The notes under the pieces are model-generated. The model was not told where the DNA came from. It saw nothing but the letters and a program-made list of their open reading frames with translations, and searched no databases. A stretch of DNA of 57,695 nt from a virus (taxonomy: Duplodnaviria > Caudoviricetes): positions 1 to 57,695 of IMG/VR virus record IMGVR_UViG_3300027903_000007; one strand, written 5' to 3'. The number at the start of each line of letters is the position of its first letter. Position 1 is the stretch's first letter. This document shows positions 37,888 to 45,441 of this stretch, piece after piece. The translations under genes were made by a program, and so were the position numbers.

Positions 37888-37962
37888 GCCGGTTTAGCAC
37901 AGTGGAAGTGCATCTCATTTGTAACGAGAAGGTCGTGGGTTCAAATCCTACAACCGGCACCA
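37888..37962 (+). tRNA. tRNA-Thr(TGT)
   Basis: Full cloverleaf: GCCGGTT/AACCGGC acceptor, TT-TGT-AA loop, GGTTCAAATCC, encoded CCA. Confidence 0.95.
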
Positions 37963-39424: not shown

Positions 39425-39964
39425 ATGACTTTGGAAGTGCATGTATCTCAGTTTTGGAATGGTGCTGATCAGGCAGCATTTGAAAACTCTGTCCAAGAAT
39501 ATGTCAATTCACTGCATGCCTTTAACATGGTGGTAGGCAAACCCCGTCCGACGGCTCACCCTCTTGTTGAGAGGGCAATTAAAAGGGTTCAAAAGCAAGG
39601 ATTCCCAGATCAGTATGTGGCTGATTATGTGGTTATTGATGATACACCACCTCCACCCTCTCTTGAGGATAAGAAAAATAAACTTATGTCTGAATTGAGG
39701 GCAGCTGAAGCCGTTGCTATGAACAGTGTGCTTCCTCATCGTAAGACACGATTGGTACATCTCAATAGTAATAAAGCTTTAACAGTTTCTGAAGAGCAAC
39801 GTACTGATGAACATAAAAAAGATATTGAATTACTTGAAAAGATTAAAGCTTTCAATGAGAAAATTATGAGGATTGCTGCTCAAGCAGAATCGGACATTGA
39901 TGATTTGACTGAACAGACAATAGATAGTTGGCAACCTCCGACATTTGAGTTAATTAATGGTTAA
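39425..39964 (+). CDS. Hypothetical protein, possibly tail-fibre-assembly-like
   Basis: PPPP linker followed by helices; GGAG SD. Confidence 0.55.
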   Translation: MTLEVHVSQFWNGADQAAFENSVQEYVNSLHAFNMVVGKPRPTAHPLVERAIKRVQKQGFPDQYVADYVVIDDTPPPPSLEDKKNKLMSELRAAEAVAMNSVLPHRKTRLVHLNSNKALTVSEEQRTDEHKKDIELLEKIKAFNEKIMRIAAQAESDIDDLTEQTIDSWQPPTFELING

Positions 39965-40556
39965 GATAATTAAATTACCAATGCCTCAAGTTGTTCCTCG
40001 TGTTGGAAATTATTTAGGTAGACCAGGTCCAACAACAAGCCAAAAGAAGTTAAAATCTTTGCGCAGGCATGCAGTCCCACCGGGGGGTATTTTGAATCCT
40101 TATGGCTGTTATGGTAATACGCGCAAGCAACGTTATAGGATTACTTGGTTTGGCTTGAAACTCAAACCTGCCCTGAGGGAGGAAGCATTGAAGAGGAACA
40201 GAATTAAACTTCAACAAAAGAAAGCGATTCAGCTTGAGTTGCATGAACTGCAAGCTTTAGCTCGTGAGAATGCTACGGCGGCAATGCACACTCTTGTTGA
40301 GATTATGAAGAATAAGCGTGCACCCGAGGCAAATAGAATTGCTGCATCAGCAGTTGTTCTTGATCGTGGTTATGGGAAAGCTTCCCAAGTGAGTATAACT
40401 GCAAGTGTCACCAATGGCAAAGCTGATAACCTCGATTCAACCGAACTCGACAAGCGAATTAGCCGAGCTCTCAAGAGAGTTGAGGATCTTACAAACCGAA
40501 CGCCAAAAGCGGGAACGGGCCAAAAACGACCTGTTAACCTACGCCTCTATAATTAA
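39957..40556 (+). CDS. Probable terminase small subunit
   Basis: Lies just before TerL; 'AMHTLVEIM..RIAASAVVLDRGYGKA..LDSTEL'. Confidence 0.7.
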   Translation: MVKIIKLPMPQVVPRVGNYLGRPGPTTSQKKLKSLRRHAVPPGGILNPYGCYGNTRKQRYRITWFGLKLKPALREEALKRNRIKLQQKKAIQLELHELQALARENATAAMHTLVEIMKNKRAPEANRIAASAVVLDRGYGKASQVSITASVTNGKADNLDSTELDKRISRALKRVEDLTNRTPKAGTGQKRPVNLRLYN

Positions 40557-42882
40557 TATCCCTAGTGGCCCGCTGCGGGAGGAGAATGAAGACGAGGTCG
40601 AACAGTTTCGACCTCGTAAGCATTTGTTCGGTGCGCATCATTTGCTCTGGCTTGATTGTCTTCAGCAAGTTGAAGATGGCAAGATAAAGCGGCTGATGGG
40701 GTTGCTGCCTCCCGGCAGTGGCAAATCAATTTATACTTCAGTTGTTTTTCCAACTCATGTCATGGGACGTTTTAAAGGCTCATCCATCATTGTGGCGAGC
40801 TATGGTTCAGAACTGCCGCGTAAGTTTGGCAGACGTGCCCGCTCAATAGTTCAACAGCCAATTTATAATCGTATTTTTGGCACTTTGCTTTCTGATGAAA
40901 GCAAAGCAGCTGATGAATGGGCGCTTAAGAATAGCAGTGAGTGGATGGGGGCTGGTATCTTGACCGGCATTACTGGTAACCGCGCTGACGGCATTGTGTG
41001 GGACGATTTGATCAAAGGTCGTGAACAGGCTGATTCTGAAGTTATCAGGCAAAAAACATGGGAAGCTTATGGTGATGATCTTCTCACACGTAAGAAACCC
41101 CAAGCTTGGGAAATTGGCGTTACCTGTATGGCAGGAGACACTCAAGTATTGATGGGTAATGGCGCTAATAAGAATTTGCGTGATATTAAGTGTGGTGATT
41201 GTGTTGCTTCTTACTATGAAGGGAAAATTGTTACTTCAAAAGTTTTAAACTGGAGAAATTGTGGTCCTGATAACGTCTTTACTATAAAGACGTTATCAGG
41301 CATTACCGTCGAGGCAAATGCGAGGCATCCGTTTCTCGTTTGCGAAAACGGAGTGTCAACATGGATAAGAACGAAAGACTTACGCCCGGGCCACAGAATG
41401 CTCCGGGTCAATGGGGAAAGTGGAAAGGTAAAACTTGCATCACAGAAGGATGCAACAAGCCAGTTTCAGCACGCGGCTTCTGTGTCACACACTACAATAG
41501 AAAGCGATGGGCTGATGGCGTTCGGCCACCATCAACAGGCGCTGTTTCAGTTCATAATGCGCATCTCAAACATAGGTATGGAATTACTGCTGAGGATTAT
41601 GACCGCATACTTGCGGAGCAAAACGGCCGTTGCGCGATATGCCGTTGTTCAAACCCCAAGACCCCAAGACGCTGGAGACGGCAATTCGTCCCAGATCATT
41701 GCCACGACAGTGGGCGGTTCAGGAGCCTTCTTTGCAATTCCTGCAATATGGTCGTCGGCTACGCTAACACCGCAGAGAATGCGCAAGCCATTGCGGACTA
41801 TCTCCGACTTCACGACGGATCCGATAGCTGAGATTACATATTCAGGCATTGAGGAAGTCTTTGATGTCCAGATCGATGGGACTGAGAATTTTATAGCAAA
41901 TGGGCTAATTTCTCATAACACGAGATGGCACGAAGATGATCCAGCGGGGCGCATCCTACCCGAAAATTATGGTGGGCAAAGTGGGTTATTGCAATGTCGA
42001 GATGGTAATGAATGGTACGTTGTATGCCTTCCTGCTGAGTGCGAACGCACTGATGATATTTTGGGACGAAAAATAGGTGAGATACTTTGGCCTGAATGGT
42101 TTACGGAGGAAATGTTTAGAGCACCTAAACGCATTCCACGTACTTGGTCGTCCCTGTATCAGCAGCGCCCAGCTCCTGACACCGGCATATTGTTTAAATC
42201 TGAATGGCTGAAATCATATGAGCAAAATCCACGCACAGGATACCCAGTAAATTTTGAGCCCGGTGATCTTAACATTTATGGTGCCAGTGATTATGCGGTA
42301 ACTAAAGATCGTGAGAATTACACGGTTCATATCGTGGTGGGGGTGGATAATAAAAGTAATATTTACATTCTTGATCTTTGGCGTAAGCAAGAGAGTTCAG
42401 ATGTTTGGGTTGAGAAATTTTGTGATTTGGTCAAATTTTGGAAGCCTATAGGGTGGGCTGAAGAAACAGGTCAGATCAATAAAGGTGTTGGCCCGTTCCT
42501 TGTAAAACGTATGCGTGAACGACAGGCATATGTCGCTCGTGCGCAATTTCCATCTACTAAGTCAAAGGCTCAGCGTGCTCAGAGTATCATTGGTCGTATG
42601 GCACAAAATGGACTTTATTGTCCTTTTGGTGCATCTTGGTTTGCTGAGTTCAGAAGGGAACTACTTTTGTTTGATGCGGGTACTTTTGATGATCAAGTGG
42701 ATGCCTTGAGTTTGATAGGGATGGTGTTAGATAGAATGATCTCAGCTGACAGTTCTTCTCAAGTTAAGGAAGAACCGAAAGTATTTTCTACTTTTCCCGG
42801 TTTGTGTACAGTTACTTTGGAAGATTTGTTTGAAGCTAATGAGATGCGTAATACCACGACTGGTATTTTAAGGATACATTAA
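40405..42882 (+). CDS. terL: Terminase large subunit containing an intein
   Basis: 'PPGSGKS', 'IVWDD', 'T/TRWHEDD', 'LYQQRP', 'SDYA', 'FDDQVDA'; the start could be ATG 40414. Confidence 0.93.
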   Translation: MSPMAKLITSIQPNSTSELAELSRELRILQTERQKRERAKNDLLTYASIINIPSGPLREENEDEVEQFRPRKHLFGAHHLLWLDCLQQVEDGKIKRLMGLLPPGSGKSIYTSVVFPTHVMGRFKGSSIIVASYGSELPRKFGRRARSIVQQPIYNRIFGTLLSDESKAADEWALKNSSEWMGAGILTGITGNRADGIVWDDLIKGREQADSEVIRQKTWEAYGDDLLTRKKPQAWEIGVTCMAGDTQVLMGNGANKNLRDIKCGDCVASYYEGKIVTSKVLNWRNCGPDNVFTIKTLSGITVEANARHPFLVCENGVSTWIRTKDLRPGHRMLRVNGESGKVKLASQKDATSQFQHAASVSHTTIESDGLMAFGHHQQALFQFIMRISNIGMELLLRIMTAYLRSKTAVARYAVVQTPRPQDAGDGNSSQIIATTVGGSGAFFAIPAIWSSATLTPQRMRKPLRTISDFTTDPIAEITYSGIEEVFDVQIDGTENFIANGLISHNTRWHEDDPAGRILPENYGGQSGLLQCRDGNEWYVVCLPAECERTDDILGRKIGEILWPEWFTEEMFRAPKRIPRTWSSLYQQRPAPDTGILFKSEWLKSYEQNPRTGYPVNFEPGDLNIYGASDYAVTKDRENYTVHIVVGVDNKSNIYILDLWRKQESSDVWVEKFCDLVKFWKPIGWAEETGQINKGVGPFLVKRMRERQAYVARAQFPSTKSKAQRAQSIIGRMAQNGLYCPFGASWFAEFRRELLLFDAGTFDDQVDALSLIGMVLDRMISADSSSQVKEEPKVFSTFPGLCTVTLEDLFEANEMRNTTTGILRIH
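41125..41919 (+). mobile_element. Intein (265 aa) in TerL
   Basis: Begins CMAGDT; block B 'ANARHPF'; ends 'VFDVQIDGTENFIANGLISHN'; +1 residue is Thr; removal restores 'GVT-TRW'. Confidence 0.92.
41361..41831 (+). CDS. Endonuclease VII-type homing endonuclease overprinted within the intein
   Basis: Different frame from TerL, GGAG SD 7 nt upstream; 'RYGIT..QNGRCAIC..DHCHDSGRFRSLLCNSCN..G'. Confidence 0.85.
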   Translation: MDKNERLTPGPQNAPGQWGKWKGKTCITEGCNKPVSARGFCVTHYNRKRWADGVRPPSTGAVSVHNAHLKHRYGITAEDYDRILAEQNGRCAICRCSNPKTPRRWRRQFVPDHCHDSGRFRSLLCNSCNMVVGYANTAENAQAIADYLRLHDGSDS

Positions 42883-45441
42883 ATGGACGTGGAACTTGAT
42901 CCACTGGCTGGGCCTGATGGTGGACGTAAGTCTGAACGCAAAGCTTTCTTCTGGTGTGACCAAATTGAAAAGATAGGCAAGGATAAAGGTTACCTTAATT
43001 TTATTAAACGTGGTCACAAGATTGAAGCTCGTTACCGCGATGAACGTAGTCGCGTTGACGAAGAGTCACGACGTCGATATAATTCACTCTGGTCCAATGT
43101 AGAGATTCTGAAGCCAGCCATTTATGGCAAGACCCCCACACCTCTTGCTGAGCGTAAGTTTGGTGACAAAGATCCTGTTGCTCGTGGTGCTGCTCAAATC
43201 CTTGAGCGCGCGTTGCGCAATGAAATAGAAATATGTGGCTTCCACGAAGCCATGAACCAAGCAGTTAGTGATTATTTGTTGCCGGGTCGTGGCACATTGT
43301 GGGTTCGTTACGAACCTCAGATTGAGGCAGGCATCTCACTGCCTAATGAAGACAGCATTGATATGAAGGATAGTAAGGAGCAATCGACTGAGTCGAGTGC
43401 TACTGATGGTGAAGATCTTGCGCCTGAGAATCAAGATGCTGAGGATAAGGATCAGGACGGTAATACGTCTGAAGAGGATCCAGCTACAGAGAAATTGGAA
43501 TCTACAGGGGACCAAATTGTTCGTGAGTCTACCCCGGTTGATTACATTCATTGGGAAGATTTTCTTATCTTTCCAGCCCAAGCACGAACTTGGGCTGAGG
43601 TAGTGGCAATTGGTAAACGTGTGTTCCTCACTTATGAGCAAATGCGTGATCGCTTTGGTAGAGAGATTGCCAAGGCAATCCCGCTTGAGAAGGATGAACG
43701 TCAAAAGGATCGTTACGAAAACACAAATGCTGAAAATGAGGTTAAAGGCGAGATATATGAAATTTGGAGCAAGCAGGACCGTACAGTTTATTGGGTAGCT
43801 TCGGGTTATGATTATCTTCTTGATCGAAAAGACGATCCGTTAAATTTGGAAAATTTCTTTCCAGTGCCACGTCCTATCATTGCTAACCAAACTACTGGCA
43901 CGATGCTTCCAGTTGCTGATTATATTCAGTATCAGGATCAGGCTACTCAAATAGACGAACTGAGCCAGCGCATAGCCATGCTCACCCGAGCTTGTAAGGT
44001 TGTTGGTACCTATAATGCTGCTGCGAAGGGCATTCAGAGGCTTTTGAATGAATCTCTTGAGAATGAATTGATCCCAGTTGATGACTGGGCAATGTTTGCT
44101 GGGGATAAGGGCGGTGTTGCTGGGCAAATGTCTTTCATGCCTCTGAAGGAGATCATTGGTGTTCTCAATGAATTAATGTCTATAAAGGAAAAGCAAATTG
44201 AGGAGATGGACAGACTTACTGGTATTAATGATTTGATGCGGGGCACAACGGATGCACGAGAAACATTGGGTGGTCAAAGGCTGAAGTCTAATAACACAGG
44301 AACACGTTTGACGAGTCGACAGAATGAGGTTGCACGCTTTGCCCGTGACACTGTGCGGATCATGGCAGATATTATGGCTCAGCATTTTTCGCCTCAGTCA
44401 TTGGTGGAAGCTTCTGGCGCAATGTATGAGGAAGGTCTTGGCATAGATCAAGATAAATTGCAGGCTTTGCAGAACCAACCACCTGCCCCTGCTTTATCAG
44501 CTCCGGGTGTTCCACCTTCTATGTCCGGAGCAGGTCCGGGCATGCAGCCTGCGGCGGCTTCTATGGGGCAACCTGCCGCTCCTCCTATGCCGCCGCAGGC
44601 TGGTCAGAATGTAGTTCCGTTCCCCAAATCCCCGATGTTGGCTCCTCCGGGTGGCCCTCCGGGGGCTCCTCCCAGTATGCCCATAACAGCCCCACTTGTA
44701 GCGCCGGGCTTGCCTATGCCTCCTCCGCCTGATCCAATGCAAATATTGCTTCAGGAGGCCTCACAGCGCATTGAGTCGGCCATCAAATTGATTCGTGATG
44801 AGCGTTTTCGCGGATTTCGGGTTGATATCGAGATAGATTCGACGATTTACGGTGATGCGACTCAAGAAAAGGTTGATCGCACTGAATTTATTTCAGAAGT
44901 TACGAAATATCTTCAAACTGCCATGGAAATGGCAACCCAAGTACCTGAAATTTTACCACTTTTAGGCAAATTGCTGCAATTTGGCGTGCGTGGCTTCCGT
45001 GTTGGCCGGGATCTTGAGTCCTCTATTGAAGAATTCTGTGATCAGTCAATCAAAATTGCTAAACAGAAACAAGCACAGGCTGCTTCTCAACCAAATCCGG
45101 AGCAAATCAAGGCGAATGCACAGGCTCAGCAAGCACAAGCTTCTTCACATGCAGCAGAAGTGCGTTCTCAGGCCGATATTGCTAAATCTCAGAATACTAT
45201 TAAGACTGAAGAACTTAAGGCCCAATCGAGTCAGCAACAGGCTCAAGCTGAGGTTATACGTCAGAAAGAAGAAAGTGCTGGTGAACAAGCAAATAACCAA
45301 GCTGACCTGATCATGAAGCAAATGGATGTGCGTATGCGTGAGATGGAGATGCAAATGGAGGCGATGCGTATGCGTGCTGAGGCTATGAAGCCAATTGAAC
45401 CAACTAAACCAGAGTCAGTGGCAGGTGGAGTAGGGTCATGA
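42883..45441 (+). CDS. Portal protein
   Basis: Follows TerL; 852 aa; helical C-terminal coiled coil; acidic and Pro-rich insertions. Confidence 0.85.
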   Translation: MDVELDPLAGPDGGRKSERKAFFWCDQIEKIGKDKGYLNFIKRGHKIEARYRDERSRVDEESRRRYNSLWSNVEILKPAIYGKTPTPLAERKFGDKDPVARGAAQILERALRNEIEICGFHEAMNQAVSDYLLPGRGTLWVRYEPQIEAGISLPNEDSIDMKDSKEQSTESSATDGEDLAPENQDAEDKDQDGNTSEEDPATEKLESTGDQIVRESTPVDYIHWEDFLIFPAQARTWAEVVAIGKRVFLTYEQMRDRFGREIAKAIPLEKDERQKDRYENTNAENEVKGEIYEIWSKQDRTVYWVASGYDYLLDRKDDPLNLENFFPVPRPIIANQTTGTMLPVADYIQYQDQATQIDELSQRIAMLTRACKVVGTYNAAAKGIQRLLNESLENELIPVDDWAMFAGDKGGVAGQMSFMPLKEIIGVLNELMSIKEKQIEEMDRLTGINDLMRGTTDARETLGGQRLKSNNTGTRLTSRQNEVARFARDTVRIMADIMAQHFSPQSLVEASGAMYEEGLGIDQDKLQALQNQPPAPALSAPGVPPSMSGAGPGMQPAAASMGQPAAPPMPPQAGQNVVPFPKSPMLAPPGGPPGAPPSMPITAPLVAPGLPMPPPPDPMQILLQEASQRIESAIKLIRDERFRGFRVDIEIDSTIYGDATQEKVDRTEFISEVTKYLQTAMEMATQVPEILPLLGKLLQFGVRGFRVGRDLESSIEEFCDQSIKIAKQKQAQAASQPNPEQIKANAQAQQAQASSHAAEVRSQADIAKSQNTIKTEELKAQSSQQQAQAEVIRQKEESAGEQANNQADLIMKQMDVRMREMEMQMEAMRMRAEAMKPIEPTKPESVAGGVGS

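Follow-up and report, generated by a model that had tools for sequence, protein, structure and literature searches.

How does an intein whose own reading frame encodes no recognisable nuclease come to be mobile? The question is raised by the large terminase gene (terL) of IMGVR_UViG_3300027903_000007, an uncultured soil virus (Duplodnaviria; Caudoviricetes) represented by a linear contig from a metagenome assembly with an estimated completeness of 62%; we analysed positions 1 to 57,695 of this record and refer to that whole stretch of 57,695 nucleotides (nt) as the window. The intein sits in terL without closing its frame, and its middle can also be read, in a second frame of the same strand, as an open reading frame (ORF) for a predicted nuclease of the endonuclease VII family. 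We consider it likely that the locus is a mobile mini-intein and that an overlapping gene, translated on its own, provides the homing endonuclease. The architecture has already been described; what is new is its breadth, as we find it in a virus related to phages of Gram-negative hosts and in prophages of Pseudomonadota and Bacillota. Coordinates of the features are collected in Table 1.

The terL ORF has no stop anywhere in frame between 40405 and 42882. Within it the intein begins with CMAGDTQVLM at 41125 and ends with ISHN (His-Asn at 41917-41919), after which the host protein resumes with TRWHEDD. It possesses the features of a class-1 intein, namely a Cys1 nucleophile, a block B His, a C-terminal His-Asn, Thr at +1 and a match to Hint. 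The Pfam Intein_splicing profile matches residues 32-265 and skips the middle (E 3.4e-14; 53.4 bits, cut-off 35.8), and no nuclease family was matched in the intein frame by Pfam at E values up to 0.1. This bears out the first-pass annotation, made from the sequence alone, which had described a 265-residue intein with a middle devoid of nuclease motifs. Across 24 aligned inteins C1, H68 (in NARHPF), H264 and N265 are invariant, as are V245, F246, D247, T253, N255, F256 and I257; Thr occupies +1 in 28 of 28 sequences, and all 26 aligned full-length sequences open with C(M/L)(T/A/V)G and close with SHN followed by T(R/C)W. The borders also align with those of the annotated intein of the cultured phage Phlyer (L001 2217-2978). 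In AlphaFold2 models, which for both the intein and the endonuclease were built with 24-sequence alignments, a confident fold is found at the two ends of the intein only, and we therefore read it as a mini-intein carrying a floppy linker of approximately 130 residues; the middle of the intein frame is predicted to be disordered. The insertion lies at the C-motif, as named by Kelley et al. 2016 (PMC5050341), of a Terminase_6-type TerL, which is the defining position of the TerL6-f family. A member of that family, the intein of Chandler gp6, is reported in the same paper to splice in a reporter, and by homology with it the window intein, itself of the TerL6-f family, is probably splicing-competent.

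What, then, occupies the middle? The overlapping ORF starts with an ATG at 41361 and ends with a stop codon at 41829-41831. Since the ATG lies 956 nt past the terL start, the ORF is in frame +2 (equivalent to -1) relative to terL. Its product matches Pfam Endonuclease_7 (PF02945) with an E value of 3.4e-18 (65.7 bits, cut-off 23.6) over profile positions 3-81 of 82, and residues C91, C94, D112, H113, C125, C128 and N129 are invariant in 24 sequences. When the family profile was compared with proteins of known structure it found T4 endonuclease VII (1e7d; E 1.4e-8) and the restriction enzyme Hpy99I (6.5e-6), and the zinc-binding Cys and D-H...N residues align to GKCLIC, HDHE and VRGLLCNLCN of 1e7d; we presume that the roles of the zinc-ligand and catalytic residues are those of their counterparts in T4 endonuclease VII. 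Both the profile match and the zinc-binding and catalytic residues place the protein in the endonuclease VII family, and nuclease activity is predicted accordingly from sequence. Foldseek likewise ranked Hpy99I and T4 endonuclease VII as the best matches to the endonuclease model (probability 0.97-0.99). Ahead of the core lies an N-terminal finger of the sequence CITEGCNKPVSARGFCVTHY. Each component listed for this protein in the first-pass annotation (the ORF at 41361-41831, its GGAG motif, the Cys/His finger and the CAIC, DHCH and LLCNSCN motifs) is present.

The endonuclease is also predicted to form a homodimer, with a score of 0.60 as compared to 0.01 for the best of three controls, although T4 endonuclease VII dimers have been solved and the result may therefore reflect likeness alone. 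Of the proteins solved as same-chain pairs, 20 of 30 passed the mark applied to this score, as compared to 1 of 23 single-chain proteins; at least 78% of contacts were common to the runs, and the partner had a predicted local distance difference test score (pLDDT) of at least 70. Just ahead of the finger the embedded endonucleases share the GQWGKWKGK motif, and G.WG.W occurs in none of 78 free-standing relatives. The seemingly invariant Gly97 and Gly100 of the intein frame are forced by this motif. The converse idea, that the motif is a by-product of overprinting on Hint, was rejected because it corresponds to intein residues 95-103, which lie just beyond the folded part, and because a LAGLIDADG-bearing version of the intein in L144 lacks the corresponding intein sequence.

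If two proteins are written over the same DNA, which of the two frames does selection see? We addressed this with an alignment of 26 distinct endonuclease ORFs over 156 columns, in which the mean pairwise nucleotide difference at endonuclease codon positions 1, 2 and 3 was 0.353, 0.307 and 0.579, respectively. The excess at third positions means that variation gathers at endonuclease position 3, which is position 2 of the terL frame. Translated in the endonuclease frame, the same DNA gave a mean pairwise amino acid identity of 55.0%; translated in the intein frame it gave 28.2%, the former being higher in all 300 pairs (25 sequences; L026 was excluded for its disturbed N-terminus). The endonuclease frame is therefore under purifying selection and carries the amino acid constraint; over the endonuclease ORF the terL frame is constrained only to lack stop codons. 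That absence of stops is itself unlikely to be accidental: when synonymous codons were shuffled 4000 times the terL frame of the window stayed open in 10.7% of shuffles, the corresponding values for the other 25 sequences were 2.6-52% in 24 and 100% in L002, and the product over all 26 was 10^-23.4. The null is a conservative one, as the codons reused in it already bear the mark of selection. The third frame contains 2-21 stops in every one of the 26 sequences. Similarly, over a 61-codon core the frame equivalent to terL was open in 46 of 46 distinct embedded copies as opposed to 16 of 72 distinct free-standing ones (Fisher p 2e-19; 14 rows had been dropped, 10 as duplicates and 4 for lack of core coverage). 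The endonuclease ORF spans intein residues 80-236, and a dual-frame constraint on all of its roughly 470 nt, as first proposed, is borne out only at its edges, where it overlaps the folded intein. These edges amount to approximately 45 nt at the 5' end, where endonuclease codons 1-15 lie over Hint residues 80-95, and to some 25 nt, or about 8 codons, at the 3' end. Over the other 390 nt or so the sole demand of the terL frame is that there be no stops, and the constraint is strongly asymmetric.

With regard to how the endonuclease might be translated, its start codon is positioned in the same way throughout the family: at 29 of 29 loci the Trp80 codon, invariant in the intein, supplies the TG of an ATG or GTG whose first base ends the preceding codon (in the case of L058 and L059 the start was taken from sequence 6 nt upstream of the tblastn start). 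A Shine-Dalgarno-like GGAG, GAGG or AGGA starting at -17 to -7 is found at 20 of the 29 loci, as compared to 10.4% of 20,853 same-phase control positions. We dropped one further candidate signal, an RNA hairpin at 41328-41357 that would pair part of the GGAG, as its energy was ordinary when 41320-41420 was folded (z -1.22; 29 of 200 shuffles did equally well). The simplest reading of the start codon and the Shine-Dalgarno-like motif would be that ribosomes initiate internally and independently on the terL message.

Evidence that the element moves comes from terL genes with and without it. A scan with the C-extein returned 20 terL loci, and in 13 of these (L134-L138, L140-L143, L145-L147 and L149) the N- and C-extein matches abut exactly; four more (L139, L150, L152 and L153) have no room for an intein, L151 does not include the site, L148 has the endonuclease VII intein and L144 has a different intein. 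The intein-less L134 is 98.3% and 93.2% identical to the window in the N- and C-extein proteins, respectively (92% and 87% at the DNA level), and its junction joins ...GGAGTTACT directly to ACCAGATGG..., whereas 795 additional bases separate the two in the window. A contig from run X2, which belongs to a second study, represents another intein-less allele, 95-99% alike; it joins 41117 to 41924 with 11 substitute letters. As the closest terL relatives lack the intein exactly, the element is mobile: close relatives are polymorphic for its precise presence or absence at one site, as expected of a homing element. Conversely, the nearest inteins (L004 and L005) have 74-75% endonuclease identity to that of the window, yet their exteins are only 46-48% identical to the window's, and family-wide the intein parts are 55-58% identical as compared to 30% for the exteins. 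A quickly built tree places the window together with L004 and L005 (Shimodaira-Hasegawa-like approximate likelihood ratio test support of 99) with host labels mixed and a weak backbone. Judged from these sequence comparisons, the identity and tree pattern is that of an element moving between terL genes. The two flanks joined in intein-less alleles may well constitute the endonuclease target; on the C side the consensus AC.CG.TGGCA.GA.GA.GA is common to intein-bearing and intein-less alleles, and the N side is variable.

Several other explanations of the locus have to be weighed. The one raised by the first-pass annotation is that the endonuclease is truly in frame with the intein and has been displaced by two compensating frameshift errors, and the window is indeed a metagenome-assembled contig, the one run that contains it having a depth of about 5. 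We give this practically no credence. Over 40900-42150 there is no difference and no gap between the window and the Logan contigs of that run (X1), which leave only the 13 bases at 41752-41764 uncovered, and the layout recurs far beyond the window. When viral contigs were scanned with the endonuclease, 50 loci were obtained, of which 30 have terL around the match; the +2 offset and a terL frame open across the whole endonuclease ORF are seen in 29 of these 30, the exception (L022) having frameshifts in terL itself. Likewise, in a scan of one genome per prokaryote species, 22 of the best 80 of 169 confirmed loci were embedded in terL, and 21 of these 22 showed the same offset and open frame. 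The one exception there, L073:2008-4272 (a 911-kb contig in an alphaproteobacterial bin), is a decayed prophage in which the intein-containing terL is broken into at least 4 frames; it is the sole case of offset 0, and we discounted it as a working fusion that joins intein and endonuclease in frame, since the offset was produced by a frameshift in the broken gene. The offset thus holds in 50 of 52 embedded loci from many samples, with both exceptions in broken terL genes, and again relative to the annotated terL genes of the cultured phages Phlyer and Keitabear, giving 54 embedded loci with 50 distinct matched DNAs (a further pair, L025 and L062, is protein-identical). Moreover, the shifted ORF begins and ends at conserved positions, and an accidental frameshift would not explain why stops are absent from the terL frame of 46 of 46 copies. 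We also think it very unlikely that the endonuclease is reached by a programmed -1 ribosomal frameshift from terL, which would yield a fusion of N-extein, N-intein and endonuclease rather than a free protein. The offset of the endonuclease frame from terL is exactly -1, the two share a transcript, and there is no plus-strand sigma-70-like promoter within 40300-43000 ahead of the endonuclease ORF, all of which such a mechanism would accommodate. However, no slippery heptamer of the form X XXY YYZ is present in the window between the upstream stop and +120, and those found at 5 of the 29 loci are scattered and non-homologous. In addition, 14 of the 29 loci have an in-frame stop 0-15 nt upstream of the endonuclease start, so a ribosome that had shifted off terL further upstream could not enter the ORF, and entry would have to follow the very start codon that is conserved in 29 of 29.

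Two other scenarios accept the layout and dispute its function. In one of them the intein is now inherited vertically and the endonuclease ORF of the window is an inactive passenger that has merely not decayed so far. Decayed versions do exist (L067, L038 and L051), and the distribution in actinophages has been called ambiguous in the part of a 2025 preprint (bioRxiv 10.1101/2025.01.02.630785) that deals with it. We nevertheless find this improbable: the ORF in the window is complete and retains every invariant residue, the bias of variation toward third positions points to long-term purifying selection family-wide, and the DNA flanking intein-bearing and intein-less alleles differs by only about 8-13%, with the empty allele in another sample 95-99% alike. 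In the other scenario the nuclease has been co-opted for a packaging-linked phage function, either junction resolution or assistance to the terminase, and its placement in terL times its synthesis. T4 endonuclease VII has a junction-resolving role and the HNH proteins of some cos phages are terminase helpers. Membership of the endonuclease VII family, a predicted dimer like that of resolvases and the probable expression from the terL message would all suit such a role, which we regard as scarcely probable nonetheless. The intein and endonuclease are 55-58% identical across carriers whose terL genes are 30% identical, and their phylogeny does not follow the exteins, a pattern that fits a mobile parasite; further, the closest terL relatives lack the whole element, which must therefore be dispensable.

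We favor a mobile mini-intein with an overlapping, separately translated homing endonuclease, and the working model is as follows. Ribosomes in the terL frame would read through the whole element and produce a precursor in which Hint (about 97 plus 37 residues) is interrupted by a functionless linker of about 130 residues; Hint would then splice itself out and restore TerL. Separate initiation at the internal GGAG and ATG in the -1 frame would give a 156-residue protein composed of the Cys3-His finger, as the DNA-binding part, and an endonuclease VII (His-Me finger) nuclease, probably acting as a dimer. During mixed infection this enzyme would cut an intein-less terL at or near the site coding for TRWHEDD, and repair from the intein-bearing copy would carry the whole element across. 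Independent translation, cleavage by a dimer, the target site and an origin by capture are the parts of this model that we infer. The proposal in the first-pass annotation of an overprinted homing endonuclease, with homing and splicing as separately encoded products, is supported by the conserved offset, the selection seen in the two frames, the disordered middle and the empty alleles.

Some of our observations do weigh against this model or lessen the support for it. The run X1 is perhaps the window's own source sample, at a depth of about 5, and its contigs therefore provide an independent assembly and not independent data. The Shine-Dalgarno-like motif is missing at 9 of the 29 loci and, where present, is set in part by a conserved Gly codon, just as the start is set by the invariant Trp codon, so that neither is independent proof of initiation. 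The Foldseek E-values to endonuclease VII and Hpy99I are weak (0.02-0.08). There is no clear co-conversion tract beside the insertion site in the comparison with L134, the first 60-nt bin of the C-extein being 0.82 identical as compared to 0.87 overall. Finally, both the translation of the endonuclease and the cutting of terL are steps that we infer from sequence.

As for where the composite came from, free-standing endonuclease VII genes with the same finger-plus-core layout occur in mycobacteriophages (for example Porky, 37% identical over residues 24-148), and the same terL site can evidently be occupied in more than one way. The terL of L144 (37-3807), which is about 70% identical to that of the window, contains two inteins with in-frame LAGLIDADG domains, the first at the P-loop (GSGK, then ALALD...THN, then S) and the second at the same C-motif site as in the window. 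The latter has a homologous Hint together with an in-frame LAGLIDADG_3 domain (Pfam 24.7 bits, cut-off 22.5); one site therefore hosts alternative endonuclease modules. Together with the free-standing relatives, L144 is consistent with an existing intein having captured a free-standing endonuclease gene. It is conceivable, although we consider it rather doubtful, that the composite had a single origin and spread afterwards, as one interlocked unit, among phages of several bacterial phyla, in which case it would be a stable end state and not an intermediate on the way to an in-frame endonuclease. With the start on the Trp80 codon and the ribosome-binding site on a Gly codon, selection for splicing would then protect the translation signals of the endonuclease. 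If so, the endonuclease could not be cleanly excised without touching the splicing domain, and passing terL ribosomes would gate its initiation, thereby tying homing to late expression.

Copies at different stages of decay were also encountered. In L067:2795-3283 a stop lies within the endonuclease and the terL frame is intact; L038:2765-3367 has been reduced to a 92-codon ORF by an internal deletion; and L051:1-285 is a 95-residue fragment of a mini-intein in which, of the endonuclease ORF, just the first 25 codons and the last few are left.

These findings have several implications. An overprinted endonuclease is invisible to ordinary gene callers because they permit one frame per DNA stretch, and inteins with a hidden endonuclease get classed as mini-inteins or as decaying ones. 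With approximately 50 distinct loci in uncultured viruses and in prophages of Pseudomonadota, Bacillota and Actinomycetota, the arrangement is no oddity of actinophages. That an intein tolerates a linker of about 130 residues of which only the absence of stops is required bears on the engineering of inteins with inserts. The view of intein origin in which splicing came first and the endonuclease later is supported. Lastly, the empty, in-frame LAGLIDADG, out-of-frame endonuclease VII and decayed versions of a single site make up a natural series for tests of the homing cycle.

Table 1. Features of the intein-containing terL locus (positions are those of the window)
Feature	Position	Strand	Evidence
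terL, Terminase_6-type large terminase precursor including the intein	40405..42882	+	825-aa ORF; Terminase_6N E 3.2e-5
N-extein, C-terminal end ...EIGVT	40405..41124	+	98.3% protein identity to intein-less L134, match ending exactly there
C-extein, starting TRWHEDD (ATPase coupling C-motif)	41920..42882	+	93.2% protein identity to L134
Class-1 intein, 265 aa, Cys1 to His264-Asn265, Thr at +1	41125..41919	+	Pfam Intein_splicing; conserved residues; exact absence in L134 and X2 contig
N-terminal Hint (splicing) part, intein residues 1-97	41125..41415	+	AlphaFold2 pLDDT 89-97 per 10-residue block; beta strands
Intein-frame linker, residues 98-226, read-through of the endonuclease gene	41416..41802	+	pLDDT 28-48, no confident fold
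C-terminal Hint part, intein residues 227-265 (blocks F and G)	41803..41919	+	pLDDT 93-96 from residue 229
GGAG, Shine-Dalgarno-like motif	41350..41353	+	7 nt ahead of the endonuclease ATG
Predicted homing endonuclease ORF, 156 aa plus stop, frame +2 (= -1) relative to terL	41361..41831	+	Pfam; AlphaFold2 mean pLDDT 86.3
GQWGKWKGK motif just ahead of the finger	41404-41430	+	Invariant or nearly so in embedded endonucleases
Cys3-His finger (C26, C31, C41, H44)	41436..41492	+	C26, C31 and C41 invariant, H44 at least 90% conserved (24 sequences)
Endonuclease VII catalytic core, residues 68-149, with CAIC, DHCH and LLCNSCN	41562..41807	+	Pfam PF02945
Two 24-nt flanks, joined in intein-less alleles (presumed homing site)	41101-41124 and 41920-41943	.	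C-side conservation

The surroundings of the element call for a few remarks. The true start of terL is probably the ATG at 40414 in place of the listed GTG, because relatives align from residue 3-4 onward. Upstream, an ORF of 199 aa at 39957-40556 that may encode the small terminase extends about 150 nt beyond the listed GTG start and still overlaps terL if the ATG is used. The endonuclease ORF has a guanine-plus-cytosine (GC) content of 52%, as compared to 45% for the window and for the terL exteins, which fits either a foreign origin or the demands of the overlap. The sole tRNA gene of the window is a tRNA-Thr (anticodon TGT) at 37888-37962.

In which viruses and hosts does the element occur? 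All 36 full-length matches among cultured phages are to phages of Mycobacterium, Mycolicibacterium or Gordonia, at 35-39% identity. The window itself is not an actinobacteriophage: its portal protein is nearest to those of phages of Bradyrhizobium, Myxococcus, Stenotrophomonas, Rhizobium and Brucella (28-35% identity), and on this sequence evidence it is a virus related to phages of Gram-negative hosts. At the DNA level, blastn of terL against cultured phages found only 156 nt of Microcystis phage Mwe-JY13 at 72%, and hence no useful relatives. Isolate genomes with embedded copies are those of Bradyrhizobium tropiciagri (on a 948-kb contig), Kistimonas scapharcae, Oribacterium sp., Dysosmobacter sp. 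and Mycolicibacterium vanbaalenii. Embedded copies were also present in bins labelled Chloroflexota, Verrucomicrobiota and others; labels on short contigs were not trusted as host evidence. In two instances identical sequences carried different labels. The Oribacterium sp. (L060) and Dysosmobacter sp. (L061) copies, which have the same isolate code prefix, are identical in the DNA of the endonuclease match and may represent either a shared phage or cross-contamination, and the endonuclease protein of viral contig L025 is identical to that of the 3.9-kb L062 from an archaeal bin (Iainarchaeum), the archaeal label being probably a binning error.

There is precedent for this architecture, and the novelty implied by the first-pass annotation does not stand. 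The preprint mentioned above (bioRxiv 10.1101/2025.01.02.630785), a survey of PhagesDB only, describes in the sections available the same out-of-frame arrangement in inteins of the TerL6-f type from actinobacteriophages, naming Keitabear, Affeca and Sedona, with an in-frame middle that is structureless and a proposed invasion by a free-standing endonuclease. The insertion site, endonuclease family, frame relation ('frame 3') and proposed origin are all as in our case, and in the window, Phlyer and Keitabear alike the endonuclease lies between the splicing blocks, on the same strand and in frame 3. Keitabear, Affeca and Sedona rank among the best matches to the window, with an identity of 38.5% for the intein frame and of 45.3% for the endonuclease frame. 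Unlike those described in these portions of the preprint, the window lies outside the actinophages, has a GC content of 45% and is accompanied by copies in genomes of Pseudomonadota and Bacillota. We found no published endonuclease VII arrangement beyond actinobacteriophages in the literature that we searched, although the supplements of the 2025 preprint might list some. The TerL6-f inteins of cluster B3/B4 mycobacteriophages (Chandler gp6; Kelley et al. 2016, mBio, PMC5050341) occupy the same C-motif of a Terminase_6-like TerL, and the parts of that paper covered here make no mention of any endonuclease encoded in a different frame. The alignment of Chandler covers 100% of the window intein at 34.8% identity, the window copy being divergent and in an unrelated phage.

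Of the better characterised nucleases, T4 endonuclease VII (PDB 1e7d, 1en7 and 2qnf) resembles the protein encoded here in its His-Me finger core, four zinc-binding Cys and D-H...N residues, and in the homodimer that is predicted for ours. It differs in being a structure-specific junction resolvase without the N-terminal finger, with only profile residues 77-139 aligning, and we know of no sequence-specific homing role for it.

Other hidden or detached endonucleases are instructive in a different way. In what is accessible of its description, the cyanobacterial dnaX intein (Phillips, DeSimone, Gogarten, bioRxiv 10.64898/2026.09.14.751524) likewise has a disordered middle in the intein frame and a folded endonuclease in an overlapping +2 ORF, with frame-dependent selection and with intein-free and intein-bearing alleles side by side; however, it is a different intein, its host gene is the cellular dnaX and its endonuclease is of the LAGLIDADG type. 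The insertion in the DNA methylase of phage ShiLan (Arsenault et al. 2025, Genes, PMC11855218) is, according to the sections drawn on here, also a homing endonuclease lying out of frame, of the HNH type, in a host frame kept free of stops. It has no splicing domain and the read-through peptide is kept in the host protein, whereas in the window Hint would remove the linker. Finally, the fractured genes of Dassa et al. 2009, as cited in the 2025 preprint, have a separate endonuclease gene where the endonuclease domain of an intein would sit; there the host gene is divided into two ORFs and splicing occurs in trans, whereas in the window the frame is continuous and splicing would occur in cis.

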